Shown here piece by piece: positions 8,990-63,305 of a DNA stretch of 64,000 nucleotides. Each line of letters begins with the position of its first letter. Positions within the stretch are counted from its first letter, which is position 1. The DNA lies in the IMG/VR virus record IMGVR_UViG_3300028833_000053; one strand, given 5' to 3'. The stretch comes from a virus (Duplodnaviria; Caudoviricetes). Made by a program: the position numbers and the translations under genes. The notes beneath the pieces were generated by a model. It was not told the DNA's origin and ran no database searches. It saw only the letters and a program-made list of their open reading frames with translations.

Positions 8990-9195
8990 TTTCTCCTGCT
9001 CCGCCCTCTGTTTCTATCGCAAAAGAGATTTTGCTAGGTTCTTTTTCTGGAATTCCTCCAGTGATTCGCTTTTCCTTCTTGGCATTGTTTATGTTTCCTG
9101 TATTATGTGGGACATTGACATTATTTGAATGGTCAAATATTGTAAATAATTCCCTTAATACGCGCTTCTTGCTGACAATTATACAGGAAATTGAA

Positions 9196-36300: not shown

Positions 36301-39300
36301 CCCACACGGTCAATGGACACAGATGCTTGTCTATGAATTCACGAGCCTTTGCCGAAAGAATGTATTTCGGTTTTTCGTTTGTGTGATCTCCTCTTCTGTT
36401 TGCCACGCCATCCTTTCCTTCAGGCAAGGTGCCGGATTTTGCATAGTCATATATGATTTTAGCCCAAGTATTCGGTATGTTGTAACTGGCGGCTGCTCGG
36501 GTCAAATCAGATTCACCACCGCTCGTCACCCAACCTTCTTCGTCAGCCTCGCCATGAGGAAACACGCTTTGCACTATGTAGTCCCCCATAAAGCCGGCGA
36601 ACTCGCCATCGTGGGCATGGTATTTCTAACGCCAACTGCCCTCGGCAAACGTCTCGTCTCCTTTCTTTAGCGTGCGGCAAGCGGGAAGACCCATAATGAA
36701 GAAATACTTGTCATAATAAGCAATCTACGTGTCGTCTTTTCCGGGGGTTGGACGGTCCTCCGCCCTTGGAATAATGACATCCTTGCTCATTGTTACTCCA
36801 TTCCAAGTACCGTCTTTTTTTCCAACAAACGATTTCCATCCGTGGCGTGTGGCAAACACCATGTTGGTGCTGGTATATGGGTTTTCAAGTCCGAATATCG
36901 TTTCGAGAATACTTGCGTCTTCTTCATTGCATACGACATTCTCTATTGCGCGGGCGTCGTCCATCTGAAGGGCGTTGTTGGACATCCTCAAGATTTTCCA
37001 TGTCAAAGGTTCACCGTCCTTGAGGTATTTGGAGAACCATCCCCTCATTTCAGAATCGTCGATTACAACCTAATCCATATCCTTGAACAAACGTGGTTCG
37101 TTGTTCATGTAGAAGGACTTGGCAACTTCAAGGGCGTTTGCCGCAGTAACTTCTCCCGTATCATACAACGGCGTTGGCGCGTTTGCATCGCTTACGAACA
37201 TGTATGAATTCACGGGTTGATCTGTCAACGCCATCGTGTTGCGCAATTGGAAATATCCAATCGTCTTCAACCAATCATAACTGACATAGTGCTTCTTGTC
37301 GATGCTGGAGTTTCCTGGCATCTGTCCACTTTCATACAAAGTTGACTTTTGTGTTTCCGTGAGAAGTTTCGTAGATTCCATTCCGTCAAACGGATATGTT
37401 TCCTTTTGCATATCGGCGGAAGACAAGGATCCAGAAACCTTCAAGTCATCCGTGACAACACTTCCTGCGCTCCATTTGACCGTTACGGACAGCTTATGTA
37501 TTTCCTTCTCTATTTCATTGAACTTTCCAGTATTTCCATCAAGCAAGGACGACACGGCGGTCATGGCATTATACTCTTCAGACCCAGAATCCCTCGGGTT
37601 CAATCCAACATTATAGCAATAAGTCTCAAAGGTGTCCTTCAATGATGCGGCATTTCCACGCATCATTTGCAGGCAATACGGGTCTGGCGGAACCAAATCT
37701 CCCCCGAAAACGGACGTGCCACCATAGAATTGAAGCGAGGTCTTACCCGGTATTCCAGGACTGACAAGAATTTCCTTTGACTGCACACCGCCAGCTTCAG
37801 AATAGGTGGTGTCCATTTCATTGTCATATTCATTTGCAAACACGAACACCAACCTCGGAACTTTCTTTCTGAAAAGATAGCCCAATCCCCGGTGGTTTGG
37901 ATGTCCATAGAAATATCCCTTTCTTATCAACTTGGACATCATGCGGCAAGTAGGTTCGCAACCGGCCCACCAGTTAGAGAGAACACCCTTGTCACTGACG
38001 ATAAACGGAAATTCAAAGTTTTCTACACCTTCATCCGTTGGGTCATAGGTGAAGAACGGAACTTCCTTGCTGAACGCCTCTTGGCCGTCTTGCGCTTCCA
38101 CTGTCCACTTGTCCGTCGTTCCATTCCACGTCATCCCCTGATAGCTGGCGAAGTATCTCTGCCAATCTCCAAATTCGCCAGTTCCCTGCTTGCCCTCCAA
38201 TTCATCCTGCAATGGAACGTCTGACTCTCCGTCAACATGTACACCAGCCATTTGCTTGGTTATTCCGCCAAAAGTCAACGGCATCGGGCGAAGTTCACTG
38301 TCAACTTCAGTACCGCCCTTAATCCAAGCTGGAACACCACAGAACAAGTTGAACTTCTTTGACAAGGTATAGTAGTAAACCGTAACGTCCGCGTCCTATG
38401 GATATTCAGGTGGCGGGTCTTTCTTGTTGTGAACCAAAATACCTTGCTCTCCAACATAATATGTATGGGTTCCTGAAACCTCAAGGTTGTACACATATCC
38501 CAATCTCAACCCAACATCAATGCTGTCTATGGTATGCCAAGTGCCATCAGGACGCAACAACTTATCTGAAACCTTCAAATCCTGGGCCGTAACCCAATCT
38601 GTTTTTTCATCCCTGTTGACGTAGAACGGATGAACTCCGGTTGCCTCGATAGTTTCTTCTCCGACTTTTATGGTGAAAATCTCCCTGACAAGCAAGTGAC
38701 GCATTGTCTTCACCACCTTGCAGTATTGATTTTTGCCGGAAACTTCATCATAGGAAAGAACCGTGTCACCCTCTTCAACCTTGTCAATGTCCTTCCGTCC
38801 ATCAAGCATTATGACCTTCGTTCCAGCAACAAAACAGTCGCCGCCTTTGTTGTGAACCAACGCGCCACGTTCACCGACATAGTACGTATGCGTCCCTGAA
38901 ACTTCAAGGTTGTACACATATCCCAACTTCAACGCAATGTCAATGTTGTCTATGGTGTCCCATGTCCCATTGGGGCGCAGCAGCATATCTGAAACCAACA
39001 AATCCTGTGCTTTTACCCATGACACTTCCCCACCCCTATTGACATAAAATGGATGTACTCCCGTTGCCTCAATTGCCTCATCGCCGATTCTTATGGTGAA
39101 AATCTCCCTGACAAGCAAATGCCTCAACGTTTTCACCACCCGACAGTATTCGTTTTTACCCGTGGTTTCATTATAGGAAAGAACAAGTTCACCTTCCTCA
39201 ATCTTGTCAATGTCCTTTTCCGTGCCATCCGCCATAAGAACTTTCGTGCCCGCGACAAAACAATCCGTCGAGCCCTTATTGTGTGCAAGAATATGTTTTC

Positions 39301-42300
39301 TTCCGACATAATAGTTGTGGTTCTTCGTGACTTCAATGTTGAACACGCCGGTTGACAACTTCTGCGATGCAATCTTGGAAATGCGGTGCAAACTTCTGTC
39401 ATGGAACATCACAAGGTCTCCGACAACAATCTCGTCCGCCCTAATCCAGGATTTCTTGTCCTTGCGCATGATGTAGAACCTGTGGTTTCCAGTGACATCC
39501 AATTCGTCGCCCTCGATGGTGAATGTATAGATGTCCTCGTCAACATCGTGCGTCATCGTCTGGGCAACTTCGCTTATTTCATTCTTTTCCTCTTCTTCGT
39601 TATACGAAACAACTTGGTCTCCGACGGAAACATCCTCTATGTTCTTCAAGGAACCGTCGGACATCTCCACCTTTGTTCCGGCAACGAAACACGAATAACC
39701 GCCTGAACCACCCGTGTCGCTTCCTCTTGATTTCAGGGGTTCCTGACTCTGAATCTCCCCATCGAACCCAAAATCTCCTTCATCGCCATATTCAACCTGT
39801 ATGTCATCTTCCTTGTATTCACCAGACCACTTGTCAAGTACGTTGGACTTGTAAGACCACTCGGATTCAAGGTTCTCAACCAAGCTCCCGTCTATGGACT
39901 TGGCTGAAGAACCACCTCCCTCGCTGCCCATCATCCAGCAATTTTCATAGTAGTTCTGGAAGAACGTCTCAAACCCACTTGGCTTTCCATCCGCCCCCGT
40001 GCCCGAACCGAATGCCCCGGTTGTCCAATGCTTTTTCGATTCCGCACAACCCCATCCGTAAGGTCGGCCTTCACCATTACCTCCTCCCCAGTTTGTATAT
40101 GGCGCATTATCAGCGCCAGAAAGGTAATAGTGGTACGTTGTGCTGCCATATCCCCTTTTCCAGTTGTAGTAGCTGGGCATTCCATCGTAACTGCCATACT
40201 TTATCTGCGTATATTCAGCACACTTATGTGCGCACATGAACCTGAGCGTCGGACCAAGGAACAACGCAGAACCAACATGGCAAATGTCATATGTTCCCGT
40301 TTCACTATATCCCGCAAACATGCGCACTATGTCGGTTGCGGATTCAATCATCCTTGTTATCTGGTTGTTCTGTGAAGCGGAAGCGTCAAAGAGGAAGAAC
40401 AAGTCAACTGGACTTGTGTGGAACTCAAACGACGAACCCTCGTTTTCCGCACTGAATATCATGGAAGGTCTGAAACCAACGTTCGCCTGCGTTGCATATT
40501 TGGACTTGAACCTGTCAGGAGCAAGTTCCTCACGGGAACTGCATATCACCTTTCTGCAAAGTTGATCGAACGCTCCACCCTTGATTACCTTCTTCGTATG
40601 CTCACCGACAGTGACAATCGGGTTGACTTCTGGATTACCCTCTGTGCTGCCCGGACCACTTTCCTTCTTGATGGTGGCGTTCCAATCGTCCCTCACCCAT
40701 TCCCAAACGTTTCCAAGCATGTCGTACATCACCAATTTGGTTGACGGGGACAACAACTTCCCTACACGGTGGATGAAAAGCTCGTTGTAAGACCATTCGT
40801 ATCTCCAATAGAACTGGGGAACAACTTGGAACGTTATGGACTTCATGTCCTTCACGGTAAGGTCGTGATGGGACTTGTTCATACCTTCCATTGAAGTATA
40901 GACTGGGAACAATTGCTTGTTCAACACGGTCTTGCTGATTTTGCGAATCCACTTTTGCCTGCTGTCGTTCAAGTAGTATTCAGACTCGGGAAACTCCTAA
41001 TCCAAATCCAATGTCTTGGGGAATTGAACTGTGGTGTCGGACAACAATTGCTGATAAACAAGACTGTCTCCAATTATGTAGTTGGCGGGAACATCCTCAA
41101 ACTTGAATCCCTGGTATATCCTTGCTCCCTCTGGAACAATGTCGTCCTCTTCATCTTCTATGTACGCCTTGTAGCCCTGATCATAGGGGTCGCCCAGCGG
41201 AACCTTCAACTCTCTCGGCCTCATACCATCGTGGTCGTCGTCAACGCCATCCAGGGTAGTGACTCTGAAATTGTCGTGGCTGTTCAATATCCTCTCATAC
41301 GTCAAACTGGCCCGCGCCATTTCATAGTCGATGGCATGCCATTTCACATGAGCCAAATCTTCGTCAAATTCCTCCTTCGGCCTCATCTTCCATGCGGTAT
41401 ACTTGGCTATAAGCTCGACCCTTCTTGCCTCTATCTCCTCGTCAGTTGGCTGAGGTATGTTTCCTGTGAACATGACGAAAGAAGCCTCGTGTTCCCTTGC
41501 GTTGCGTTCAAGGACGTGGGAAATCTCAATGAAGGAGTTCGTCCAGTGGACGTAGCAAGGCGTTCCATAATTCGTGGAAGAGCCATCAACGTCGCCAAAC
41601 GTGTTCCTTCCATTTGCCATTATGTTGCCTTTCCACTTGTTCTGCTTGAACGTCCTGTATATGCTTCGGACAATCTTCTTGGTGTACTTCTCCAAGGCTT
41701 GCCACGCTGCAAGATCGCTTCCCAACTCGCGGCGCTTGTTCTTGAAATACTTTATGTAGGTATAATGGCGTACCACGTTCCACAAGTTCCAGGTCATCGG
41801 CCTTTCATGTATGGAATCAAGAACGTCCGTGTTCATGTTCTCTGGAATCTGTTTTTTCCTGAAGTCACCGTCTCCGTGGCATTGCTCACCAAAATAGTAT
41901 TTGTCCGCCGTTGGGTCTTCGTGTTGTGGCGTACCAAAGGCGTTGCTCATGTGGTGTATCTTCCACTTCTCGTTCGTGCCGGCGCAATTGGGGTCAAACA
42001 CGCCCTTGTAGCAGTTTCCAGAATTGTCGGTTGTCAACACCGTGCCGCCATAGTCGCGTTTTGCAAAGTCGGTGCCAATGGTGTGCTGCACGGCGTGCCA
42101 CTTGTGCTCCGACAGGAACGTAGGTGTCCTTCTTTCCTCCTTCGTGTCGGAATCAACCTCAACATACTCGTCTTGTTTTTCGTGCGCGTTGGAATAGCAA
42201 TAGCCACCCTCTTCATAGTTGAGCTTCGCACTGCTGATTCTTCCATAGCAGTCAACTGTCGGTCCGTTGTTCTAGTCGCCTCTGTTCTCCCACCAAAACA

Positions 42301-45300
42301 CGTAGGGCATAATGTCCTCAAGTTCAACCACCTGGTTCAAGTCCTCCAACGGAGAAACCATCGTAATGTAGAACCACACGGAATCTTCGTCGAAATCGTC
42401 TATTGCGTGGGCTTGACTGAGGTTGTACTTGTACTTCAACCTGTCGGGACTTGCCTTTCGTGCTTCGTCATATACGTACTTGTTCACGGTCAAGTCAACG
42501 AATGAACCGCCCTTGTCGTAATCGTCAACCCAATCCTGGTATGGGAACCTGAATTCACCAGAACCACCACTTCCAAAATCGTATTGAGTGCCATACATTC
42601 CATTGAACTCACCGTCCTTGACCGTAAGTTGCTTCAACGTCTGATATGGAATGAGCTTGGTGAACCTCTCGGCCAGCGTCTTGAGGTTGTTCTCGTTGTG
42701 GTGTCTCTTCGCCAAGAACTCGCAAGCGCGAACAATGTCGCCGAACGCAGGATCTTCCGTGCGTCCCTCATTTGACTGCTCGAATATGATTCCATTTATG
42801 TGATCGGAACTCTTCGGCACCTTGTCCGTCTGATAGGTGTCAAGCATGAAGCTGTACAACTCGCTGTTCTGCTTTATGTTGAAGAACGGAATCAAGAAGT
42901 ACGTCCAATCCCTTTGGTTGTAGAGATAGTACCAAGTGCTTTTTATGTTGTCAACCAAAAAGCCGCTCTTGTCATCCTCGTCCTCGGGATTCAACTTCAC
43001 CCATTTCTCGTAAACGCTTCTCTATGTATCGTCAAACACGTCAAGATGGAAGTCGCGGTCCATCTAAAGGAAGTTGTAGCCGCCAATTCTGTTGTACTTG
43101 TCATAGGACGACGGAACTATTATGGAGTCCTCGTTGTACTCCATGTTCACCATCGTCTTGGAAGGAATGGTACACCATCCAAAGACGCCATATCGGTTTT
43201 CAACGTCCGCCTGATACTTCGTGTCAGCCGCCATGTCGCAATCGTTGAATATGTCCCTTACCTTCGGCATTATGATTGGACGGTACTTCTTCACAATGGA
43301 AGTGAATGTCTGCAACTAATCCTGACCCCTGACTATCTCGTTGTAGGTTCCGTCGTTCTTGTGTCCCAACCTATGACGCAGGAAATCGTTTGCGTCAACC
43401 GGGGACTGGATGGTGGAGTTTTCGTAGAGACAAAGCGGACGTATGTCATAGTAGTTCTGCTGATCGTCCAAAGTCGGCGTCACGTTCGTGGAAATGTTGT
43501 CGTCTATGGTCTTGTTCCTGTCGGTTGTGTCGTTCTTCCTCTTCTGGACGCTTTGAAGGGTTTTCCTGTAGTCATAGTAGTAGTAAAGATCGTTATAGTG
43601 TACTGCGTTCGTGTTGTATTCACCAATCAACTCGCGGTTCACTGGAGTTATTCTCCAATTCAACGCCCGTGTCTTGTCTATCCTGCAAACAAGCCTGCCA
43701 TCTTCCACTTGGTTTGCCGTGTGGAAGTTGGAGAACTTGAATTCAATTGCGGGTTCAAAGGAAATCCACTTCACGTCCCCATTGAAGCACACCACCTGGT
43801 AATTTGAAGGGGTTCCGCACACAACATCGCCTGAATTAGTGCAGATTATTTCATCCAACGCCTCGTCGGCCTCACCCAATATCTCTCCATACCACCAATC
43901 TGACTTCTCGGGCACGTCTATCTTGAGGAAATACTCCTTGTGCGCTATGTCTATGTTTATCTTGAACAACGCCTTGAGCAAGTTGACAACATCAACTATT
44001 TCAAGCATCGTCAAGGGCATGAAGTCGTTTGCACTTGACTTCAATCTGTTCAACAAGCTGAGGAACGGACAAGCGGAGAATTCATCAAATCGGGATTCAT
44101 CATACTCCCTGGGATTCAACCCAATCAACGTGCAATAGCACTTACCCTCTGAATTCACCTTGTCTATGTCTGGATGACCAGACCAATACTGGCAAGTTCC
44201 CAATGTATGATCTGGTTCATCTTGAACACGGGGGTCAACCAAGTACGAACTAACGCCATCCAATTTGTCCTGTTCGTCACCATTCAAAGGAACAACAACC
44301 TTGTCGTATACTGCAACCAAAACGGATTCCGAAAGTATGGTCATGGAGGACGTTATGTTTCCACTTACCAAACTCCAATACCTGAACACATACTGGGTGC
44401 AAGAATCATCGCCATCCTTTACATTCGTTTCCAAATGCAGGTGGAATGAAGGTATGTGCTGATTCTAAACAACATCCTGCCACTTCTCGGCCTCGTGTCC
44501 ATCCTAATCTATGTACTTGAACGTCACGCGGAAGGCAGTTTCGCCACCTGCATGAATCTTCGCGGTGATATACCTTTGATATTGCTCAGCGTCGGACTTT
44601 CCATCGCAGATGATGTACTTGCTCAAGTTCTTACCTTCGTCAAAACCTTGGTTGTCACCTTCCGCAGACACGCCGGTGTTCGCCAATGGCTCGGTTCTGT
44701 CATCGCAAATTATGGCACCGCCACGTCCCTCGATGCCCGGAAGCACATCACCTTCCAAACTGCTCCAACCAAGAAACTTGAGGTTTGGATTAGAAAGTTT
44801 GGGGTTAAACGGAGGATATACCACCGTGTTCACTTCCTTGTCAATCAAGACATCGCAATAAGGCTCGTCACCAACCTTGAACGTCAATATGTCATAACCC
44901 AACGTCCAATTAGCCTCCAACACCACAATAGGCGCAGAATCCACCCATTGCTGTTGAATTCCAAACTGATACTCGTCATAGCATATGCCATAGGAACCGC
45001 CAATTGAATATTGCCAATTGGCGAACTTGTGCGTCTGCCAACGTTCACCCGTGGCGTTCAACCCAGTTGGAGAATCCAAAGGATAGTCGAATTCCCAGAA
45101 TCCAGTTGGGGAATCATGGTATTCAAAGCGAAGTTTGTCCCCAGATGGTCCCGTGAAAGTGCATTTTGGCAAATTCACAAGTTCGTTGGCGCGGACCGTA
45201 ATCGGCCTCATTTCGCCCGAACCACCATCGCCGGGTCTGAACTTCACGATATATTGCGTGTTCCAAACTGCATAAAGGCTCAATGTGTCGGAATCATGGA

Positions 45301-47836
45301 AGTTCCACTTCGTCAACACGTCATCCAAGTCAATGGACGGCACCTGGGCAAACCTGTCCGTGGAAAAACCAAGCAGTTCATATTGCACCGTCAATCTTGA
45401 AGATGCGTCCAAAGTCTCGTCCGTGTCCGTAAACGTTGGCTTGTTGACCAACTTCACCTCGGAAAGATCCAATTGGAAATCATCACGTTCCGCTTCAAAA
45501 TGAATTGACTGTGGTCTGTTCAACAAGTCGCGCTTGAATGAAGATCCAACCGGCACCTCGACAACCCCACCAGTCCATTGCATGTAGCTGTTCAAGTTGA
45601 AGTTGATGTATATGTCACGGTGACGGTATCCAACATCCGCCGCGGCACGGCTATTCAACATTCCCTTTACGGGAACCGGTTCGCTTTCTTCAAAGGAAGG
45701 TGCTTCTTCAACCACAATCTCCTTGGGTGCGGAATCGCTCTCCCGGCACAATGGGCAAAGATCCCAATTCTTCAACAACCAACCCTGTCCCGTTTTCGCC
45801 AAGATTTGAAGAAATTGCTCCAATATCTTGCGTTCATCCGTGTCTAGTCCAGAAGTGCCAGGATTCCTCCAATATTGCTCCACTTTCGCCAAATACCTCA
45901 GGTAACCATTTGGATCATCCATATCGTTTTCGTCATAGTACACAAAGGCATTGGGGTTTTGGGAATGCTTCAAGGTGTCGGTTGTAAGGTACTTGTAGCC
46001 ACTGTCGATGTTGATATGGCGTTGAAACACCTCTCCGGTTGTTGACTTGAACTGCAAATACTTGTAGAGACGCGAAAACACTCGCTCAATCACGATTGCA
46101 CATTGGGACTGGGAATAGTCATTGACGTTTGCCGGGTTGAATTCCTCAATCGCGTTCATGGAAGAGTTGTATATGTTGAATATCTTTTCGTTCTTTATGA
46201 CTTCAAATGCGTCCGCAAGGGCGTAGTAGCCCTGTTCCAACATCTTGTCCCTGATGTCGGAAACGTCCTTAACTGCCTCACCAAATATGGGTTTCACGTA
46301 TTGACTACCAACCAGGTCATTATCCGTCAATTCGTGATATTCAAAAGCGGACATCACGTCATAGGCGCAACCCAAGTGAAGATTGGTGTACTTGGTGTAT
46401 ACGGACCTATGGGATTCCTGATATACCTTTCCTGGTTGGTAGAACCAGTCATAGTCGTTGTCCGAATCGGCCTTGTGCGTAACCTCTGCAAGGGAAACAA
46501 ATCTCCTTACGATGTCATTCATCTTCGTCAACACGCCACGAGGAAGAACGCAATCCTTTCTGGTGTTGGCTATCGCAAGGCAATTGTCATTGTATTCCTG
46601 CCACATCACGTCGTTCCATATAAAGGCGTACTTTACAAGATTGCCCAGCTCGTCTGGAACTCCATCACCTATGGTCTCATCGTCAATCCACTCCAAAGTG
46701 GCGGATGGCAAGGAATCCTTGTATATGCGTCCATTGGTGGCATTTTCAACATCGTCGCTTTCAACATACTCACGTCCAGATTCATCCGTGAAAACCTGCT
46801 TCCTTGACATCGGGTTCATGTTGAAATACTTGACATCAAAAGGATACTTCGCGTCTATGCTCTTGTAGAGAAGGTTGTACCAAATGTCCAAGGCAAGAAT
46901 GCCCTCCCACCTGCGGTGTGGGTGCTTGAAGCCATATATCTCATGGCACATTCTTATGTTGGAAAGCTTGGCGAACAACTTGGCAATGTGTTCACAAAAG
47001 ACATATATGTAGGACTTGCTGTCAGTCAATGCAACGGCGTTTCTGAAAGAAGTCTTTGCATCGTGAATGTCCTTTTCAAGATTCCTCAACTCAAACATCG
47101 TTGAGGACTGTCCATGTCTGTGAATGTCAACCTGCTGTTTCTTGTCAATTCCAGTGTAGTCCTCGTTGTACTTCCCATAGTTGTAGTCAGTCAAGAACTC
47201 ATCCGCATATATGCCAATCTTGGGGTCGGTTGTGGCATAGTCAACAAAGGGCGTGTATGTGAAGGAATCCAGGAAAAACTCACCATTCTCAAAATCCTCC
47301 TTCACCCTGTCGTAATCCACCTGACGGAAACCATCATCAACCATAGTGAAGCCGGTTATGCCATAGGTGTTCTGATAGGATTCCAGTTTCAGGGATTCCC
47401 CACTTCTGTACTTGAATCTGAACAAATCACGGAAATAGTTCTGTGAATCATCGCCATCAAGTTTCATTTGCTTTGAAAAGTCCTGAAGCAAAATCTTCTC
47501 AATGAACTCAAATGGCGTGATGAGCCTGTCTATCATGTTTGGTGGATAGTACGGGTTGTTGTTTATGGGCAATTCCGGCGTGGATGACGTTTCATCGCAA
47601 TGGACAAGATAGGAGGTTCCCTCATATGCGGTCTCCCTGTACTTCGGACCAAGTTCAAGGAGTTGTGTTACACGGTGGTTCCGATTACGGTCCCCGTTTT
47701 CGCCATTTGACCTGTCACCATTTACGACATCATCCTGTGGACGCATCTCCTTGGAAATGTAGTCATATATCTGTCCTGAGTTTGGTGTTTCGCCAAGTAT
47801 AAGTTTCTTAAGATCTGTTACGTAAGAATTGCTCAT
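33356..47836 (-). CDS. giant ~4,826-aa virion-associated protein: InlB-B-like repeats, permuted FGE/C-lectin halves, vWA motif, 3 tandem Hint domains (12 in-frame TAG)
   Basis: ten ORF-track pieces from 44504-47860 down to 33356-34276 are all in one frame and separated only by TAG; ends TGA; late motif at 47880. Confidence 0.85.
38426..39691 (-). repeat. three tandem Hint/intein-like domains (39278-39691, 38849-39262, 38426-38836)
   Basis: each CFVAGT...TG[N/V]H...V[F/Y]N[I/L]EV..H.YYV....HN, 137-138 aa; copies 2 and 3 are similar at DNA level. Confidence 0.9.
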
Positions 47837-47879
47837 TGTTCTTTCTTCTCTATCTACCAATCTTCAACTTTCGTAGAAC

Positions 47880-48984: not shown

Positions 48985-49221
48985 TCACTGCTGTGCGCCA
49001 ATGACCTTGTTGAACATGTTTGTCAAGATGTTCCTTGAAGCGGAGCCAACAGGCGCAGTCGCAATGGCATTCAACACGCCCTGCGGATTCTTCAACGCCA
49101 CCAGCCCCGTCAAAAGGCAGTTGATTGTGTCGGCAACGCCACTTGCATCCTTCTGCATCTGCGCAGCCAGCTCCGCAGTCCAGTCAATGTTGGATTCCTT
49201 TACTATCTTCTTCCATTTCAT
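48985..49221 (-). CDS. small putative internal head protein (MKWKKIVKES tag)
   Basis: late motif at 49244, GAGG RBS. Confidence 0.6.
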   Translation of the reverse strand: MKWKKIVKESNIDWTAELAAQMQKDASGVADTINCLLTGLVALKNPQGVLNAIATAPVGSASRNILTNMFNKVIGAQQ

Positions 49222-51206: not shown

Positions 51207-53621
51207 TCAAGCGTCCACGCATGTGTGCTTGACTCTCTGCTCAGTCTCCTTCTGCTTGCCGTAGTTGAACGCAGTCTTGTAGTCGCCGGTCAAGTAGCCC
51301 GTCACGCGGCGAAGCCTCTGGATGTTGGTGGAGCCGCACTGGGGGCATTTCTCGCCAATTTCATCCGTGTAGCCGCAATCGTTGCAGATGTCGTTCGGGA
51401 CGTTGATTGCGAAATAGGGGATGTCGTGATCCATTGCGTAGTTCACAAGCTCCTCTATTGCCTTGATGTTGTTCTTCGCGGTTCCGTCAAGTTCAACATA
51501 GGTGATGCATCCTGCGCTAGAATATCCCGTAAGCTGACTTTCAAGGTCAATCTTCTCAAACGGCGTCATCTTCTCCCATACGGGAATGTGCATTGAATTG
51601 GTGAAGTAATCGTGGTCTGAGACATGTTCAATCTCGCCATACTTCGCCTTGAACTTCTTCATCGCAGTATAGCACAGATTCTCCGCTGGGGTAAAATACA
51701 CGCCGAAATTCAGCTTGTACTCCTTCTTGAACTCCGCGCACCTGTCCTTGAACAACTGCTCGATTCGTTTCGCAAGTTCCATGCCCTTCTCCGTGGCGTG
51801 GTTGCATCCAATGAGGATGTGAAGGGTCTCCGCAAGTCCCAACTGACCGATTGCCAACGTTCCATGCTTCAGCGCGGACTTGATGCCCTCTTCTGGCTTG
51901 TAGCCGTACATCGTCCCGTTTTCGTACATGAACTTGGCGGACGCAGCGGGTTGTGAGGTAATCCAGTCAAACCTTTCAAGCAGTGAATCCTTGGCTTCAT
52001 GAATCTTCTTGTCCAGAAGTTCCATGAAATACTCAACTGTTTTTGTCTCCGCCGCCCCTTCGCACCAGTCAATTCCCTTGGCGGTGGCTTTCTTCAATTC
52101 AGATTCCATTTTCTTCTTCGCCTGCATCGCCAATGTCGGCATTATGATCGTCGTCGGACAGATGTTTCCCCTACCGTCCTTCAACTGAACCAACTTGGGA
52201 TCTTCCGCGTTGATGTCGGCAAGGTTGGCGGTTCTGCATCCCATCGTGCTGAAATAGGTGCAGGGGTTGTTTGGGTCATAGCCAGCTGCATTTGACCAAT
52301 CCACGTTCGCATAGTTCGGATAAAGCCTCAACGCAGTTGACTTGCAAGCCAACTTGAACAAATCGTAGTTGGGGTCTCCCTTCTTCCTGTTCACGCCCTT
52401 CATGCACTGGAAGATGCCACACGGGAATATGCTTGTCTTGTGAAACTTGCCAATTCCCTTGATTGAACCCTCAATCAACGCCTTTGTCACCATTCTTCCC
52501 TCTGGCAACGTGCAAGTGCCATAGTTTATTGACGTAAACGGCAACTGGTTTCCGCTCCGCGATTGTAGTGTATTGAGGTTGTGGTACATTCCCTCAACCG
52601 CCTGCTCCAGTTCTCTGGTTGTCATTTCCATGGCATACTTGTACGCATCGGGGAACTTCTTGTATGCATCGCTTTCAATAGAAACTTCCTTCGACAAGAT
52701 TGTATATTTGACCTTTCCGTTCTCCTCCTTGGCATAGCCATTGTCCTTCAGCCATTTCAACTTCTCGTCATGTGTCAAACCAGACTTCTCAAACTCCTTG
52801 TATTTCTTCTGAATCTCGTCATCCCCAGTCCATTCATTTGTGAATTCTACGAACTGCAAGAGATTCACGCCCTTTCCTGAATTCTCAACGAATTCCAATG
52901 CGTCCTTGAAGTGCTTGAAGAAAGACTTGCGCACATACGGCACCATCGTCCAGTCAAGATGGGTTGCCGCAACCCCACCGAACTGCTGCAGGGATTGAAG
53001 CTGGAATATCACAGCCACCAACTGAAACGCGGTGTTGATTGAGCCAGCTGGTCTGACATCACCCTGCCTTGTGTTGAAGCCCTCTTTCAACAACTTGTCA
53101 AATGGGATTGAAAGGCAGTTGTGACTGCCCACTGCGTATGCGTCAAGGTCGTGGATGTAGACCTCGTTGTTGTTGTGGTTGTGGCGCGTCTTCTTGGAAA
53201 CCAGATGTTCCAATGCGTAGTTCTTCATCACATAAGACGCGGTCTCGCCCATTCTCCCACCAAATGAATACTCGTCAACGTTCGCATTTTGGTTTTGGAC
53301 ATTGGACGCGGTCAGCTTCTCGGTGAGGTATTTTGTGTTTCTGACCCTCTCCTTCTCGTATCGGTACGTGATGTACTTCTTGGCAACCTCGTAGCCAGCG
53401 GCCTCCATTATCTTCTTCTCAATGACATCCTCAAGAATGTCAATGTCAATCGGCTCCTCCAACGTCTCGCAAAACGCCACCACGGAATCCGTTATGCGCT
53501 TCAGCTGCTTTGCTGTCAGCTTCTCGTCGGCCTTTACGTTCTCGTTTGCCTTGATGATTGAATTCAAAATCTTCTTCGGTTCAAGGTCTTCCACCTTGCC
53601 GTCTCGCTTTATCACTGTCAT
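51207..53621 (-). CDS. nrdD: anaerobic ribonucleoside-triphosphate reductase (class III) with ATP cone
   Basis: VIKRDG ATP cone, YIHDLD, NC, MGCRT, TPAENL, CxxC/CxxC, RRVTGYL glycyl-radical motif. Confidence 0.95.
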   Translation of the reverse strand: MTVIKRDGKVEDLEPKKILNSIIKANENVKADEKLTAKQLKRITDSVVAFCETLEEPIDIDILEDVIEKKIMEAAGYEVAKKYITYRYEKERVRNTKYLTEKLTASNVQNQNANVDEYSFGGRMGETASYVMKNYALEHLVSKKTRHNHNNNEVYIHDLDAYAVGSHNCLSIPFDKLLKEGFNTRQGDVRPAGSINTAFQLVAVIFQLQSLQQFGGVAATHLDWTMVPYVRKSFFKHFKDALEFVENSGKGVNLLQFVEFTNEWTGDDEIQKKYKEFEKSGLTHDEKLKWLKDNGYAKEENGKVKYTILSKEVSIESDAYKKFPDAYKYAMEMTTRELEQAVEGMYHNLNTLQSRSGNQLPFTSINYGTCTLPEGRMVTKALIEGSIKGIGKFHKTSIFPCGIFQCMKGVNRKKGDPNYDLFKLACKSTALRLYPNYANVDWSNAAGYDPNNPCTYFSTMGCRTANLADINAEDPKLVQLKDGRGNICPTTIIMPTLAMQAKKKMESELKKATAKGIDWCEGAAETKTVEYFMELLDKKIHEAKDSLLERFDWITSQPAASAKFMYENGTMYGYKPEEGIKSALKHGTLAIGQLGLAETLHILIGCNHATEKGMELAKRIEQLFKDRCAEFKKEYKLNFGVYFTPAENLCYTAMKKFKAKYGEIEHVSDHDYFTNSMHIPVWEKMTPFEKIDLESQLTGYSSAGCITYVELDGTAKNNIKAIEELVNYAMDHDIPYFAINVPNDICNDCGYTDEIGEKCPQCGSTNIQRLRRVTGYLTGDYKTAFNYGKQKETEQRVKHTCVDA

Positions 53622-53737: not shown

Positions 53738-53953
53738 TTAATCTTCCGTGATGTTGACGTGGCAAGTTCCGCCATCTTTATATGTGACAACCAAAGTTTG
53801 GTCATCTTCAGAATCCACACCAATTACACCTGGAAGTTCATAAAGCACATCGCCAAGCTGGGTTCTCAAAAACGTGGCATGTCCCTTTTTACTCCGTATA
53901 ACTGCGGGATTCATCGGGTCTATTCCCTCTTTCACTATCTTATTCCATTTCAT
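53738..53953 (-). CDS. small putative internal head protein (MKWNKIVKE tag)
   Basis: GAGGTG RBS, shared N-terminal motif. Confidence 0.6.
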   Translation of the reverse strand: MKWNKIVKEGIDPMNPAVIRSKKGHATFLRTQLGDVLYELPGVIGVDSEDDQTLVVTYKDGGTCHVNITED

Positions 53954-53968
53954 TTCAATTCACCTCTT

Positions 53969-56314
53969 TCAATATCTGCTGAACACGTAACCATCTTCCT
54001 CGAAGTAGTCGTTTATGAAAAGATCGCGTCCAAAAGACTCATAGTCAAAGTAGTTTCTCGCCGTGTCGGGACCCAACTGGTCAACGCCACCAAGACTGTC
54101 AACGTAATCTTCCGCAACTTGCCTGTCGGACTCGTACTCTCCCTGGTCATAGCCATCGTTGTCGTAGTAGTGGTCTGGGTCTTCAGGCTCGCCCTCGGAG
54201 TCCGTGTTGTCGGGGTCTCCGATGTGGAAATCATACATCAAGTCACGTCCAAAGGAATCGTAGTCAAAGTACATGTCAAGGTTCTCCTGACCAAGACTGT
54301 CCCAACCCATGCTGTCAACAATGTGGTAGGCGAAATCCTCTGCGGAGTTAAACTGTCCCTGATACGCATCGTGGAAATCGTCAATGCTGTCATTGTCAGT
54401 GTAGCTGACATAGGCGGCATAGGCATCCTTCTCCGAATCGTCCATCATGTAGTATTCGTTGATTTTGTCAAACTCCTCCTCGGTTGGCAAGCCACCTTCG
54501 TGATACCACTTCTCGGGGAAGTTCTCATAGTCCTGAACCATGAACTCTGGGTCTTTCTCGTCGGAATGAAGTTCACGGCAAGCATCCACGAATTCCTCGT
54601 AGGTGTTGTAGTCGGAAAGGGTTATCCACTTTCCGTCAATGGAACCGTTGTTGTACTTGGCGTATGTTCCAACGTAGATTTTGGGTTCTCCCAAGTCAAC
54701 GTCACCATCGGCTTCCTTCACGACCTTCTTGTTTGACTCGCCATAGCAGTCCAACGCCTGATAAACCTTGTCAAGCTGGCGTTGCATCCAAATCTTGTCG
54801 ATGCGGTCGCCGCTCTTTCCATATTGGACGCAAGCATCACCATAGTCGTTGATGATGTTCTTGACGTCCGCCGTTCCTTCCTTCACAATCTTCTTCATCG
54901 TGTTCTTCCTCGTAGATTCATTCAATTTGTTAAACTCCGCATAGAACTTGCCCAACCTGTTGCGCCACTTGATAGCCACCTTGTCGTCAGTCATTGATGT
55001 TGCTCCGGCGCGAACGAGAGAATACAACGTGTCAAGATCCTTCTTGCCATTGATTTCAAGTTCCCAGTTCTTGTCGGAGGAATCATAGAACTCCTCCAAC
55101 TTGTCAACCCACTTTTGGGCATCGTCAAACTTCAAGCTGGCAAGGTGAATCAAACCATAAAGCTCGTCAAGTTCCTTGCGGCTCCTGATTTCCAGATTCC
55201 ACTTCATTCCCTTCTCAAGCTCTTCCCAGTTCGTGGATTCCTCCATTCTTCCATTGTAGGTTGAAACCCAATTCTCGAAATCATCCAGCAACTTGCCAAT
55301 CAAAAGCTCTTCGTCCCTGCTGCAGGTCTTGTTCTTCCAATCATGCTCGATGTCAAACAAACGGTCGCGCAATTCCCTCAACTCAAGGTCGCCCTGTTTC
55401 TCTGAAACGCCATGATGCTTGACATCGCGGATTACCCTCTTCTTGGCGGCTTCAATAGCCCTCTTGAACTTCTGAAGTTCGGACGTCTCCTTCACAACTT
55501 TCTTCATATTGGTTTTCCTCGTGGATTCCTTTAGTCCGGCAAAAAGGGATTCTATCTTTTCCAGTTCATCCGGTGTTGCATCCAACCTTCCATATTCCAT
55601 GTCAACGATGATTCCGGTCTCGCATTCACCCTTCGTCTTGTACCTGTTTCCTGGTATGTACTTTCCGGTTTCGTTGTCAAAACCCACCCACCAGCTCTTT
55701 CCGTCCAATGCGGTTCTCTGCTTTGCTGAATACCTTTTGGTTATGTCCTTCAAGGGCAACATTGACTCGTTCACAATATCTTCTTCTTCTTCCAAAGACA
55801 AAAGTTCGGGCGCCGTTTGCCTGAGATATTCCCTGTCCTCGTCTGTGAACGACCCCATGCTGGAAAGATAATCCTGAACGGCCCAAACCTTGTCCTCGGA
55901 TTCATCCCATGACGGGTTCACTCCACTTGGCTTGAACTCCTTTTCCTTTTCAGCCAAAAACGTTTCCAAGTTGCCAATGGATTCCTGCACATATCTTGGG
56001 CCGTCATCGTCAATGACGTGGTCTTCCTCTTCATGATAGCCAACGTCCTTGAATTTCCTTGCGTCAATCGCAGCAAGGAACTCAGGAATTTGATCCTTTG
56101 ACATGAAATCCTCATCGTACAGCTCATATTCCTTGAGTTCATAGTTCACCCTTCCGATTGGCGCACCTCTGTAGTAGATTTCATATCCATGGTCATAGCC
56201 ACCAAGAGCCATTTCCCAGTTTCCGCATCGGCCACGCTCGCCGTTGTCGTCAATCTTATCCATTACCTTCGCAAGGGCGGAGAAATTAAGTTTGGATTCA
56301 TTCATCTTTTTCAT
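53969..56314 (-). CDS. multi-module polyprotein with C-terminal ArdA anti-restriction domain
   Basis: C-terminal ~240 aa: PKIYVGTYAKYNNGSIDGKWITL...DPEFMVQDYENFP...YFDYESFGRDL...DGYVF matches ArdA; repeated xxES linkers. Confidence 0.85.
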   Translation of the reverse strand: MKKMNESKLNFSALAKVMDKIDDNGERGRCGNWEMALGGYDHGYEIYYRGAPIGRVNYELKEYELYDEDFMSKDQIPEFLAAIDARKFKDVGYHEEEDHVIDDDGPRYVQESIGNLETFLAEKEKEFKPSGVNPSWDESEDKVWAVQDYLSSMGSFTDEDREYLRQTAPELLSLEEEEDIVNESMLPLKDITKRYSAKQRTALDGKSWWVGFDNETGKYIPGNRYKTKGECETGIIVDMEYGRLDATPDELEKIESLFAGLKESTRKTNMKKVVKETSELQKFKRAIEAAKKRVIRDVKHHGVSEKQGDLELRELRDRLFDIEHDWKNKTCSRDEELLIGKLLDDFENWVSTYNGRMEESTNWEELEKGMKWNLEIRSRKELDELYGLIHLASLKFDDAQKWVDKLEEFYDSSDKNWELEINGKKDLDTLYSLVRAGATSMTDDKVAIKWRNRLGKFYAEFNKLNESTRKNTMKKIVKEGTADVKNIINDYGDACVQYGKSGDRIDKIWMQRQLDKVYQALDCYGESNKKVVKEADGDVDLGEPKIYVGTYAKYNNGSIDGKWITLSDYNTYEEFVDACRELHSDEKDPEFMVQDYENFPEKWYHEGGLPTEEEFDKINEYYMMDDSEKDAYAAYVSYTDNDSIDDFHDAYQGQFNSAEDFAYHIVDSMGWDSLGQENLDMYFDYDSFGRDLMYDFHIGDPDNTDSEGEPEDPDHYYDNDGYDQGEYESDRQVAEDYVDSLGGVDQLGPDTARNYFDYESFGRDLFINDYFEEDGYVFSRY

Positions 56315-56679
56315 TTTTCACTGTCCTCTGGAGACCACAAATGCAAATCGTCACCGTCTCTGCCATTGATGAAACAATAGATGTTGCCATCATCCTGGAA
56401 ACCATACCCGCTATTGGGCAATGGACCGAATCTATTGTAATCCAGCTTGTCCATTTCACGAATGTCCGGAAATTCCACCCACAATTCCTCCATACGGAAC
56501 ATCATATCCTCTTCTTCAAGCTCCTCAGCGTCCTTTCCAATCAAGTCCCTTATCCTTGACGTGAATTCCTCAACGCTTTGCTTGTCCCTTGCGTAGAATA
56601 TGCCGTATGAACCAGTGGCGATGTCGCGGTAAAGCATCGCATACATCGTCTCTTTCTCGGAATCTTTATACTGTTTCAT
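56311..56679 (-). CDS. hypothetical acidic protein
   Basis: late motif at 56715; overlaps polyprotein start (ATGA). Confidence 0.6.
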   Translation of the reverse strand: MKQYKDSEKETMYAMLYRDIATGSYGIFYARDKQSVEEFTSRIRDLIGKDAEELEEEDMMFRMEELWVEFPDIREMDKLDYNRFGPLPNSGYGFQDDGNIYCFINGRDGDDLHLWSPEDSEK

Positions 56680-56730
56680 CTGCAAATATCTTTCTCTTTA
56701 CATTGGTCAAAGAATATTTACAATAAAACA

Positions 56731-57185: not shown

Positions 57186-57986
57186 TTATTTACTCCCTTT
57201 ATAGTTTTTATGATTCTTATGGTTTTTATGCCAAGACTCCTTCATCTTTCGTTTGGTTTCTTCTGATAAATGTTTACCGTACATTGGATTGTTTTGTCCT
57301 TTCCTTTCATTAGACAACTTTAATTTTGCTTCATCCGATAAATGTTTTCCCTTACTCCAAGTATTCTTTCCTTTAAGTCTCTAGGATATTTTTATTTTTG
57401 ACTCTTCTGAATGGTGTTTTCCACCAAATCCAGGTTTTCTCCCCTTTAATGATTTTGCACGTTTCTATATTGTTTCTGGTGAAGGATGTGAAAATTGATA
57501 TGGTAATGGTCTCCCTATATTAGCCTATCTTATTTTCTCTATGTGTTCCTATGATAATTTTCTCCCTTTATGAGACATGGACAATTTTTTGCGATGTTCT
57601 TCTGAAAATTTTTTACCTTTATGTGCCAATGATAATTTCAATTTGGTTTCATCAGACAAATGTTTTCCTTTATTTAATTCTGAAACTTTCATTCTGACAA
57701 ATTCATAAAGTCTTGAATTGAATCTGAATCCTCTATATTGATTTTTATTACTGGTTCTCATCATAGTTATTGCCGTCCACATTCCTTGCGTATTATAAAT
57801 CTTGGCTAATAATAAATGACAAATATAATGTTCTCTAGCAGTTAGAAAAACCAAATTAGAAGACTCATTAGAACCTCCTTCTGATTTTGGTATTATATGA
57901 TGACTTTCGCAATAACAATCATCACGATTAATTGGATTCTTCCGACGCTTTTCAATAAGCGCATTGTAAACCTTTAAGTAGTTCAT
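57186..57986 (-). mobile_element. free-standing HNH homing endonuclease with NUMOD3 repeats, 266 aa (4 TAG)
   Basis: ESHHIIPKSEGGSNESSNLVFLTAREHYICHLLL; repeated KGKHLSxExK.K.S; strongly AT-rich. Confidence 0.85.
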
Positions 57987-59114: not shown

Positions 59115-59480
59115 TTAGGGTTTTCTCAGACCAACACCTTCCAAAATTTTAGCCGGCCAACATTCTTCCTTGCGGCAAAGCCAAATGACAAGCGTTTCCA
59201 TCGTCCGATACTTGTCGGTGTCAAAGTCAACGTCAAAAATTCTCCAATCGTACAATTCGCATTTCTCGAAAATGTGTCCTATGGCACGTTCCTTGTTCTC
59301 ATTTCCATTGAACGTGTACGATCCCAATCCAGGTGCTTCCACCCAAATGTCGGAACCTTCGGGCATGTCCCAGTCATTTATGAATTCAATCACCTTCATC
59401 ACGTTCCACCAATCCTCATCCCCCTTGGGCTCGTTTTCCTTGATGAAGTTGAGTATGTCAATGTCTTTTTTGCCTGCCAT
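59115..59480 (-). CDS. hypothetical protein, paralog family A
   Basis: IFEKCELYDW...VIWL. Confidence 0.6.
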   Translation of the reverse strand: MAGKKDIDILNFIKENEPKGDEDWWNVMKVIEFINDWDMPEGSDIWVEAPGLGSYTFNGNENKERAIGHIFEKCELYDWRIFDVDFDTDKYRTMETLVIWLCRKEECWPAKILEGVGLRKP

Positions 59481-59829
59481 AAGGATCCTCCCCATCCGAA
59501 AGCCACATCGTGCAGTTGTCTTTTTGAACGACGCCGCCAACGCGCTTTCCATCAACGTATTGTATGGCGTTCACAATCCAACCATACAGCTCCAACTTCT
59601 CAAACAACGCGGCGGCCACCTCGTCGGCGTCCATCCACCGGATAGTCACCCACTTCTTTCTGTCGGTTCGCCAGAAGTTCAACGTGAACCTGATGTCGCC
59701 CTCTGAGCAGTCCTTGCACAACTCCACAAAACGGTCAAAGTCAAAGTCAATGCCCTTGTCCCGGATGAAGAACCCGTCCTTTGGAGCATAGCCCTGTATG
59801 AACTCCCTTAACTTGCTCAAATCGTTCAT
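59458..59829 (-). CDS. hypothetical protein, paralog family A
   Basis: KLREFI...LFEKLELYGW...TMWL. Confidence 0.6.
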   Translation of the reverse strand: MNDLSKLREFIQGYAPKDGFFIRDKGIDFDFDRFVELCKDCSEGDIRFTLNFWRTDRKKWVTIRWMDADEVAAALFEKLELYGWIVNAIQYVDGKRVGGVVQKDNCTMWLSDGEDPYGRQKRH

Positions 59830-60176
59830 GCCCGCTCCTTGCTGTCATCCGGCGGCGCCAACCACATATAGCATACATCCTTGCCACCATGCGTATATCC
59901 AATTTCCTTTACCTCCCATCCAAACAGTTCAACCTTGTCAAAGAGGTATGGCACAACTTCTTCGGCGTTGAGATATGGCGCAACCCATTTGTCCTTGTCA
60001 TCACGATGTACGTTGAACCTGTATATCTTGAAGTAAACCCTGTTCCTTGGACAGTCCTTGACAAGGTTGATGAACTTTACAAGCGGGAACTTTCCACGCA
60101 AAATGGGCTTGGTGTAGCTCCTGGGATTTTCCAGTATGAACTCGCGCAACTTGAATATGGAGACTATCCCTTCCAT
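59826..60176 (-). CDS. hypothetical protein, paralog family A
   Basis: KLREFI...LFDKVELFGW...YMWL. Confidence 0.6.
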   Translation of the reverse strand: MEGIVSIFKLREFILENPRSYTKPILRGKFPLVKFINLVKDCPRNRVYFKIYRFNVHRDDKDKWVAPYLNAEEVVPYLFDKVELFGWEVKEIGYTHGGKDVCYMWLAPPDDSKERA

Positions 60177-60505
60177 CAGTCCTCCTTCACCACCAGATAG
60201 ATTGCATAAGTCCACCAACCATTGCACGGACCGAATTGGGCAACATCTTCAACTTCCCAGCACTTCTCGCCGCACTTCTCAAAGAGAAACGTCAAAATGG
60301 TGTCCCATGTGAAAGTCTTGAAATATGTCTTCGTCAAAGACCTTTTCTTGGTGCAGACGGAAACAAAGAAATGGACATCGCGCTTTCCGTTCCCCGAGAT
60401 TATGTCGGCAAGTTTCTGAAGGAACTCCCCGGTTGTCCTGTCCTTCCAAACCCAGAACAACTCGCCAAGTTCGGGAATGTAGTCTTTTGAATGGGGTCCG
60501 TACAT
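60176..60505 (-). CDS. hypothetical protein, paralog family A (divergent)
   Basis: LFEKCGEKCWEV...AIYL. Confidence 0.55.
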   Translation of the reverse strand: MYGPHSKDYIPELGELFWVWKDRTTGEFLQKLADIISGNGKRDVHFFVSVCTKKRSLTKTYFKTFTWDTILTFLFEKCGEKCWEVEDVAQFGPCNGWWTYAIYLVVKED

Positions 60506-62373: not shown

Positions 62374-62772
62374 ATGATGAAATGGCTATTGAAACTTGGA
62401 CTGAAATTCGTGTCCTACCAAACTCTGGTCAACACCATTGCTTCTGCAATCGCGTACATACTTGAATACGCAAGGAAGGAGGCAACTCCTACTGCATGGG
62501 AAAACGCAAAGGAAGCAGTGAGGCAAATCAAGAACTGGGCATCTTTGCTTGATGAAGTGTATGAGGACGATACCCTCACCTCCGACGAAGAGAAGAAGAT
62601 CCAGAACGCAATTGCGGACTGCACCGCAACAACCACAATATACAACCTGTTGAAGGGCAAGAAATCTCCGAAAAAGGAAACCTGGTCAAAGACCGCTGAT
62701 CCAAAGACGGAAACCCCCAAGAATAAAAAGAACAGGAAAAGAACAACCAAGAAAACGGGAACCAAGAAATGA
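62374..62772 (+). CDS. late hypothetical protein with basic tail
   Basis: late motif at 62345, GAGG RBS. Confidence 0.6.
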   Translation: MMKWLLKLGLKFVSYQTLVNTIASAIAYILEYARKEATPTAWENAKEAVRQIKNWASLLDEVYEDDTLTSDEEKKIQNAIADCTATTTIYNLLKGKKSPKKETWSKTADPKTETPKNKKNRKRTTKKTGTKK

Positions 62773-63305
62773 AAAGGAAAATCAACGAATCATCCGAACA
62801 GGAAACCTTGAAGGAAATTGAACGCACATATGGAAAGAAAGTACGTGACGCTCTTGTGAAATACTGCACTGCGAAGAACTTGGACATCACCGATACGGTG
62901 TACGAGACAAAGACCGATGGAAACGGCCAAACCCCTTGGGACAAGTTTGACAACTGGGCCGAAAAGAAGTTGGGTCTTGACATAATGGGAGACTTTGACG
63001 ATGACTTCGATTACACTGGAGCGGACGCCAGGGCGAAGAGGGAAAGGGGATTGCAGGAAGTTCCCTTGGCATCCTTGGACAGCTTCGATGAGGGAAGCGG
63101 AAGCAACCCAATTGATGAATACTTCATCCGAAACTGGATTGCAGAGGAACTTGAGGAATGCGAATGGGTTGATCCTTCAGAAATCGAGTACTCCGGCGAG
63201 GAACCCTGGGTTGAAGTAACGGCGCAAAATGGTGTCGTGTACAGAATCCAGGTGACAAAGGAATTCGCGCCAAGGGAAGTGAACGCAGTGGACGATCTCA
63301 TATGA
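62769..63305 (+). CDS. putative internal head protein (MKRKINES tag)
   Basis: ATGA-coupled, acidic. Confidence 0.6.
   Translation: MKRKINESSEQETLKEIERTYGKKVRDALVKYCTAKNLDITDTVYETKTDGNGQTPWDKFDNWAEKKLGLDIMGDFDDDFDYTGADARAKRERGLQEVPLASLDSFDEGSGSNPIDEYFIRNWIAEELEECEWVDPSEIEYSGEEPWVEVTAQNGVVYRIQVTKEFAPREVNAVDDLI

Follow-up and report, generated by a model that had tools for sequence, protein, structure and literature searches.

Background

Why should a virus place ArdA, whose canonical form is expressed first after DNA entry, at the end of a chain of other modules and behind a late-type promoter motif? This question is raised by a gene for a 781-amino-acid (aa) polyprotein in a member of the Caudoviricetes (record IMGVR_UViG_3300028833_000053), of which a stretch of 64,000 nucleotides (nt), hereafter the window, was analysed together with the whole genome, whose virus record of 433,895 bp is complete and bears terminal repeats. 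Packaged, pre-made inhibitors have so far been established in T-even phages, whose internal proteins IPI-III act against the type IV enzyme GmrSD, and in phage P1, which packages the Dar proteins. We consider it probable, from sequence and by analogy with T4, that the present protein is likewise cargo, namely a late-expressed polyprotein that would be packed in the capsid, cut by the head protease and injected with the DNA.

In the following, P0001 denotes the 781-aa polyprotein, G000 the whole genome, P000x and P01xx related proteins, and L0xx loci; a slash within a motif marks the presumed cut.

Architecture of the polyprotein gene

P0001 is encoded by a single uninterrupted open reading frame (ORF) at window positions 53969-56314 (-), which ends in TGA under genetic code 11 and with TAG read as Gln alike. 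A tag of 6 residues is followed by six small modules and, at the C-terminus, by ArdA. The ORF, all the listed junction sites, the ArdA module and the internal duplications were found as stated by the original prediction, which had described a capsid-tagged polyprotein of about seven modules ending in ArdA. The operon has the following layout, with the TGA of the upstream 124-aa gene overlapping the ATG of P0001 (ATGA):

56715..56721 (-): GTAAATA (TTATTGTAAATAT), a late-type promoter motif 36 nt ahead of the start of the B-like gene that opens the operon
56311..56685 (-), probable ATG 56679: 124-aa gene, homologue of module B (BLASTP to P0009:100-225, E 7e-15)
56297..56314 (-): N-terminal tag MKKMNE/S, residues 1-6
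55982..56296 (-): module N, residues 7-111, ending YVQE/S, with an acidic tail
55766..55981 (-): module W, residues 112-183, acidic, helical, ending IVNE/S
55526..55765 (-): module C, residues 184-263, with ...RTALDGKSWWV..., ending GLKE/S
55487..55525 (-): linker 1, residues 264-276, STRKTNMKKVVKE/T, comprising cut site, Shine-Dalgarno-like ACGAGGAAA, ATG and tag
55238..55486 (-): module D, residues 277-359, helical, ending RMEE/S
54917..55237 (-): module E, residues 360-466, a duplicated unit of beta-hairpin plus helices, ending KLNE/S
54878..54916 (-): linker 2, residues 467-479, STRKNTMKKIVKE/G
54737..54877 (-): module F, residues 480-526, small, helical, ending CYGE/S
54713..54736 (-): linker 3, residues 527-534, SNKKVVKE/A, shorter, preceding ArdA
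53972..54712 (-): ArdA module, residues 535-781, followed by the TGA stop at 53969-53971
53738..53953 (-): 71-aa gene with tag MKWNKIVKE/G, last in the operon and conserved in L005
53689..53712 (-): hairpin of an intrinsic terminator at the end of the operon, followed by the early-type TGGTATAAT promoter of nrdD

Junction motifs and linkers

The repeated sites that had been proposed to separate the modules are all present: KMNE/S (6/7), VQE/S (111/112), VNE/S (183/184), LKE/S...VVKE/T (263, 276), MEE/S (359), LNE/S...IVKE/G (466, 479) and GE/S...VVKE/A (526, 534). Each junction of P0001 reads hydrophobic-x-Glu followed by a small residue. The pattern [LIVM]xES occurs six times where 0.92 are expected (20,000 shuffles, P 0.0004), a density of 11.2 per 1000 aa that exceeds the 1.47 of the phage proteome 7.6-fold, and K[IV]VKE occurs three times against none in shuffles.

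Such a chain could also stay uncut, the whole of it being packaged and delivered or active as it is, with linkers that are flexible basic tethers left by gene fusion. Indeed, polyvalent proteins, some of them with ArdA, are widespread and some are transferred uncut (PMC5512222), and the AlphaFold2 (AF2) models do not draw the linkers as disordered. However, the hydrophobic-x-Glu plus small residue is kept at all junctions while the intervening residue and the flanks vary, that motif recurs at the end of the tags on free-standing genes and at the termini of the protease, and it shows the 7.6-fold enrichment given above, so that we regard an uncleaved chain as rather unlikely.

The linkers have an anatomy of their own. 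The two long linkers, STRKTNMKKVVKE and STRKNTMKKIVKE, each of 13 residues, repeat one another, and all three basic linkers end in K(I/V)VKE, their MKK(V/I)VKE end being the N-terminal tag of other genes in the phage. In each long linker ACGAGGAAA is followed after 6-8 nt by ATG, an arrangement that resembles the ribosome-binding sites of the stand-alone tagged genes. Judged by their sequence, the long linkers look like fused intergenic joints, made up of a cut site, a ribosome-binding site, a start codon and a tag. The linker codons ACG AGG as such were rejected as proof of a functional ribosome-binding site, being the commonest Thr and Arg codons genome-wide.

The tag on other genes

The tag MK(W/F)KK(I/L)xxE/S heads at least eight unrelated genes of the genome. 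Written as M-(K/R)-(W/F/K)-(K/R/N)-(K/R)-(I/L/V/M)-x(1-3)-E-(small residue), the pattern is found in eight genes, always at the N-terminus, and at none of the remaining 3868 Met positions; the linker ends within P0001 are shortened forms of it. The sites of P0001 had been said to match the tags of small genes nearby, and this holds for the 71-aa gene at 53738-53953 (MKWNKIVKE/G) and for two further genes of the window:

48985..49221 (-): small tagged gene, MKWKKIVKE/S behind an ACGAGG ribosome-binding site
62769..63305 (+): 178-aa tagged gene, MKRKINE/S

Elsewhere, MKFKKIVKE/A stands on a 426-aa protein and MMKWKKLINE/S on one of 234 aa whose gene is near the capsid-gene block. GTAAATA precedes four of the eight tagged genes, among them that of a cell-wall hydrolase and neighbours of the capsid gene.

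These tagged genes bear on a further alternative, that P0001 is not packaged and yields one or more cytoplasmic late proteins, perhaps from internal starts, which would protect replicating or progeny DNA or act on co-resident elements; in that case the fusion of tagged genes would have left the junction motifs behind as relics. The succession of ACGAGGAAA and, after 6-8 nt, ATG in the long linkers, as in true ribosome-binding sites, fits this idea, as does the position of the gene between nrdG and nrdD, outside the head gene block. By contrast, some linkers lack Met or Val at the start position (KRPRFKKIVKE) although their peptide remains conserved, the content of Lys, Arg, Gly and Glu by itself explains the purine-rich codons, the tagged genes elsewhere include the cell-wall hydrolase and one near the capsid-gene block, and a late-only ArdA cannot protect an entering genome. 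An unpackaged product therefore appears quite improbable.

The hydrolase (L007, G000 52584-53477), a 297-aa Hydrolase_2 plus LysM protein with tag MKWKRIMLEE behind GTAAATA, is a candidate head-delivered peptidoglycan hydrolase. Two further multi-module proteins of the genome have like joints: that of L011 (G000 354824-356923) with TFTE/SKKTMKKLNITKE, YVSE/SGK...KFVNE/S and AAESRKLVKE/GAG, and that of L008 (G000 81133-82413) with MKFKKIVKE/A...RMNE/ARKPMKK...YMSE/STKFNE/G. They have a paralogous module in common.

T4-type machinery, recoding and probable late timing

Three components of T4 type are encoded in the genome. An S77 prohead protease (G000 297110-297844; PF03420, 48 bits against a cut-off of 27) has termini that themselves read LIVE/S, LIKE/S, ILE/S and IVE/S; in T4, the corresponding gp21 cleaves after L/I-X-E (PMC9026906). 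Also present are a gp23-like capsid protein (E 3e-72) and a gp55-like late sigma factor at window 8441-9085 (-) (phrog_234, E 2e-21), the latter with three in-frame TAGs itself.

TAG is read as Gln in this phage: a tRNA with anticodon CTA lies at G000 410487-410576, and under this reading there are 310 sense TAGs and all genes stop at TAA or TGA. For example, window 33356-47860 (-) becomes one 4834-aa ORF with 12 TAGs. The lack of TAG in P0001 was considered as a sign of early expression and rejected, since the probability of none among 19 Gln is 0.24 and the capsid gene likewise has no TAG.

The most enriched 7-mer upstream of genes is GTAAATA, present in 72 of 478 upstream regions (about 10-fold), with GTATAAT (within TGGTATAAT) also among the top motifs. 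GTAAATA precedes the protease gene, the head gene of the capsid-protein operon and giant TAG-rich ORFs, and TAG density is 3.3 per 1000 aa behind it, against 1.4 behind GTATAAT. The late promoter of T4 itself, TATAAATA, was rejected, having four genome copies against about 22 expected and none upstream of genes. Ahead of the polyprotein gene, or of the small operon that contains it, the late-type motif (TTGTAAATA) is present in the window and in each of the 12 related loci. In ten of these loci it lies 37-44 nt before the polyprotein start, while the early-type motif was found in none of the 12; L005 resembles the window in that TTGTAAATA lies before the upstream 124-aa gene. The downstream nrdD has its own TGGTATAAT. 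An ArdA made only late would be useless to the incoming genome unless it were packaged, and this supports the packaged polyprotein.

Relatives and module shuffling

Word-index and HMMER searches returned about 110 related proteins, all metagenomic and several from contigs of 418-433 kb; a near-identity DNA search against phage records gave no match, and tblastn matches were limited to the ArdA parts of unrelated phages. With TAG as Gln, the related loci are single ORFs of 476-788 aa with 0-3 TAGs, and the closest orthologue, L005, has 788 aa and three TAGs. Most relatives have an in-frame TAG, and full production of most orthologues needs TAG read-through.

All 24 full-length relatives have module N first and ArdA last, and all carry at least one K(F)(K/R)KI(V/M)KE linker. 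In between lie 0-5 middle modules of at least 15 kinds, swapped exactly at the hydrophobic-x-Glu sites, and because they shuffle between relatives the seven modules of P0001 can be regarded as independent. Module B, a separate upstream gene here, is internal to the polyprotein in most relatives. An automatic homology-breakpoint analysis, based on the ends of BLAST high-scoring segment pairs and noisy, gave about 2-fold enrichment near the sites and none for controls with Asp or Lys at P1; segmentation by the sites was cleaner.

Stand-alone N-module genes had been taken for gene fission, an idea that was withdrawn because they are mostly code-11 calls stopping at a TAG for Gln (...RYV[TAG]ES); reading TAG as Gln joins the split calls into full polyproteins, and the apparently split genes are therefore calling artefacts. 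In several of the loci L003, L005, L016, L019 and L023 a TAG lies in or next to a junction motif (YV[TAG]E/S, SRK[TAG]VMW, ED[TAG]DMVNE/S), so that code-11 calls split the protein exactly at module borders.

The polyprotein locus always lies between nrdG and nrdD, in the window as in the relatives. In the window an ORF like an HNH homing endonuclease, with four in-frame TAGs (57186-57986, -), stands between nrdG and a conserved 149-aa gene; since nrdG directly abuts the 149-aa gene in the close relative L005, this ORF is an insertion in the present genome. Further away, at 59115-60227 (-) and upstream of a lysozyme-like gene, are three neighbouring small paralogous genes with ...KLREFI... N-terminal regions.

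The ArdA module

The last module had been called ArdA-like, and the profile matches agree (PF07275, 116 bits against a cut-off of 27, Pfam E 3e-33; phrog_2059, E 1e-30), residues 546-697 covering profile positions 1-145 of 155. Nothing besides ArdA, and in particular no peptidase domain, was recognised in the Pfam and PHROGs scans of P0001. The predicted duplication of the ArdA C-terminal subdomain is likewise present (645-705 and 720-781; 49% identity, E 3e-10), the second copy aligning to residues 114-153 of Tn916 ORF18 ArdA (2W82). With a net charge of -55 and a pI of 4.05 (values of composition only), the module (535-781) is as strongly acidic as expected of a DNA mimic, and a block of type I restriction is predicted from its sequence. 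It resembles the canonical Tn916 ORF18 (PDB 2W82) in its Pfam match over the whole profile, its strong acidity, and the N-terminal IYVxxxxKYNxG and C-terminal YxDYxxxGRDL motifs; it differs in the duplicated C-terminal subdomain with an acidic spacer and in its length of 247 aa against 165.

The other six modules

Module N (GRCGNW...LGGYDxGY...RVNY) gave a 47-sequence alignment and an AF2 model of a helix, five strands and a helix with a predicted local distance difference test (pLDDT) of 78. The fold search suggested by the original prediction found no relative for it (Foldseek best E 0.2; VIA-align best Z 4.4, with a root-mean-square deviation of 3.7 over 69 residues), and its profile matched nothing below E 0.33 among PDB sequences. 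Similarly, residues 100-545 gave zero PDB matches at E <= 0.001 and weak BFVD matches to small uncharacterised viral proteins, probably via module E. The AF2 model of residues 100-545 (mean pLDDT 60, predicted template modelling score 0.36) was made on a partly misaligned multiple sequence alignment, in which D-module rows lie on W columns, and so neither shows nor excludes flexible linkers; confidence is high for E (pLDDT > 90), moderate for W (60-80) and low for C, D and F.

The internal duplication announced for the fifth module (E) was recovered (40% identity, E 9e-10). For module W (net charge -14) there are 23 family relatives, and other phages have small stand-alone proteins like it. 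Module C follows different neighbours in P0003, P0004 and P0005 and stands alone in distant phages, and distant D-like modules in P0109 and P0111 are likewise flanked by xES sites. A HMMER search of residues 112-534 against 1.84 billion representative proteins returned 27 proteins, all lineage-restricted relatives; in distant phages, W-, C- and D-like domains are small proteins or parts of other site-punctuated chains. On a 378-kb metagenome contig, an N-module-like domain (GNGRFARNGKWSIGLGGYDHGYEVYF; L030:4465-5505, +) is embedded in a far longer ORF that contains TAG and runs in frame for about 590 residues upstream of it, and module N is thus present in other chain contexts, in a more distant megaphage.

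That the six modules are new inhibitors, as had been proposed, is a guess from sequence, an anti-defence role having no direct support because no family or fold match was found.

Alternatively, only ArdA might be cargo, with N to F as a multiply cut docking propeptide that is degraded and largely expelled. In favour of this, N never leaves the first place nor ArdA the last, no function can be recognised in the middle modules, and long propeptides that are cut at several points and expelled from the head are known (PMC10052503). Nevertheless, the middle modules are folded or conserved (E with pLDDT > 90, N with 78) and are swapped as cassettes, W, C and D occurring as small proteins or in the polyproteins of distant phages; their sizes of 5-13 kDa are near those of the retained T4 internal proteins (PMC9026906), and a pure docking region needs no 15 or more alternative modules. 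We therefore give little credence to ArdA as the sole cargo.

A model of packaged cargo, and points against it

For the cargo polyprotein we infer late transcription, prohead targeting, cleavage, head retention and injection, as well as the functions of the non-ArdA modules. In this model, the gp55-type late machinery would transcribe the operon from the GTAAATA motif, and the tag or linker peptides would direct the chain to the prohead's scaffolding core, like the capsid-targeting sequence of T4. Cuts by the S77 prohead protease after each Glu would then yield products of 5-29 kDa, about as large as T4 IPI-III. These would remain inside the head until they pass with the DNA into the next host. 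In that cell, pre-made ArdA would block type I restriction enzymes before any phage gene expression. Linkers that are fused joints would explain how tagged genes fuse into a chain and how modules are exchanged between relatives.

The packaged anti-defence polyprotein of the original prediction is supported: the T4-type machinery, the late-type motif, the N-terminal tag family and the shuffling at sites speak for it, while the N-terminal tag proved not to be constant. MKKMNES is missing from most relatives, with the minority variants MKRTMVRES, MKSLLNET and MKRLLNES, so that the internal K(F)KKIVKE linkers and not the N-terminus are the constant feature.

This inconstancy of the tag is one of several points that weigh against packaging and cleavage. 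The tag has no sequence similarity to that of T4, the likeness being one of analogy and not homology; we know of no test of the T4 tag at an internal position, where the present tag mostly stands. A hydrophobic-x-Glu motif also lies within the ArdA fold (KWYHE/G), so the motif alone does not equal a cut, and AF2 drew helices through the linkers with pLDDT 55-80 and no clear disorder. The late status of GTAAATA is something we infer from genomic association and analogy with T4 TATAAATA, and P0001 itself is without TAG, though this is uninformative (P 0.24). The phage is known from metagenomes alone. Finally, cleaved N-terminal pieces often exit the head in other phages (PMC10052503).

A bolder extension of the packaged polyprotein, which we put forward tentatively and think somewhat doubtful, is that the linker is a universal cassette joint of this megaphage lineage, and that the shuffled orphan modules form an injected anti-defence library delivered with ArdA. 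Tagged genes would fuse into the chain or split out of it through recombination or when a stop codon is lost or gained, the linker might double as an internal translation start, and the library would comprise N, W, C, D, E, F, B and at least ten others.

Comparison with known systems

In T-even phages, the internal proteins are diverse injected anti-restriction proteins with only the tag in common (PMC3012670, PMC12373910), and in T4 a foreign protein is loaded into the head when it bears no more than the first 10 residues of IPIII, a tag that is then removed (PMC9026906). The present system resembles T-even IPI-III and Alt in the short N-terminal tag ending hydrophobic-x-Glu on unrelated small proteins, the S77 prohead protease, the presumably late transcription, the predicted anti-restriction cargo, the highly polymorphic locus and the predicted products of 5-29 kDa. 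It differs in that the tag, MK(F/W)KKIVKE, is unrelated to the 10-residue tag of T4, that one chain joins up to seven cargoes, with internal copies of the tag as linkers, that the inhibitor is ArdA (type I restriction-modification) instead of the inhibitors of GmrSD (type IV), and that the phage has a TAG-recoded genome of 434 kb and is known here from its sequence.

Polyvalent proteins have 2-15 effector domains, ArdA being a known constituent, and the virion RNA polymerase of N4 and ArdC are transferred uncut (PMC5512222). Shared with them are unrelated conflict domains in one polypeptide, ArdA, mosaic order and predicted co-delivery with DNA. In contrast to P0001, they usually carry a peptidase of their own (zincin-like MPTase and others) and larger enzymatic domains, and those with ArdA are found mainly in conjugative elements of Firmicutes, together with ArdC-N (PMC5512222). 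Processing here would fall to the head protease, acting in trans at the regular motifs of the junctions, and Pfam and PHROGs found none of the hallmark polyvalent domains (MPTase, ART, ParB-like and others) in P0001.

The heads of phiKZ, 201phi2-1 and SPN3US likewise involve a gp21-related protease and multiple cuts after Glu, with Ser favoured at P1' in SPN3US (PMC10052503), and they carry large amounts of ejected protein, a likeness to the proposed cargo. There, however, the documented cuts remove N-terminal propeptides of single proteins, of 111-254 residues in SPN3US head proteins (PMC10052503), and not serial folded cargoes. Our literature search found no paper pairing "polyprotein" with prohead-protease processing of ejection proteins. 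What is new here is ArdA as a proposed cargo, the tag repeated as linker, the anatomy of that linker and the comparative support.

Implications

Inhibitors that are made in advance and travel with the DNA are the fastest possible counter-defence. If our reading is true, a DNA mimic against type I restriction would be delivered pre-made in the virion, and a single chain would fix the ratios of the cargoes and allow the exchange of cassettes. The tag with its cut site would be a candidate portable loading signal for large capsids. On the same condition, the orphan modules between these joints, of which there are 15 or more, would be ready candidates for injected effectors of uncultivated megaphages. 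Gene calls under the standard code break such genes at TAG, and public protein sets therefore conceal how they are built.

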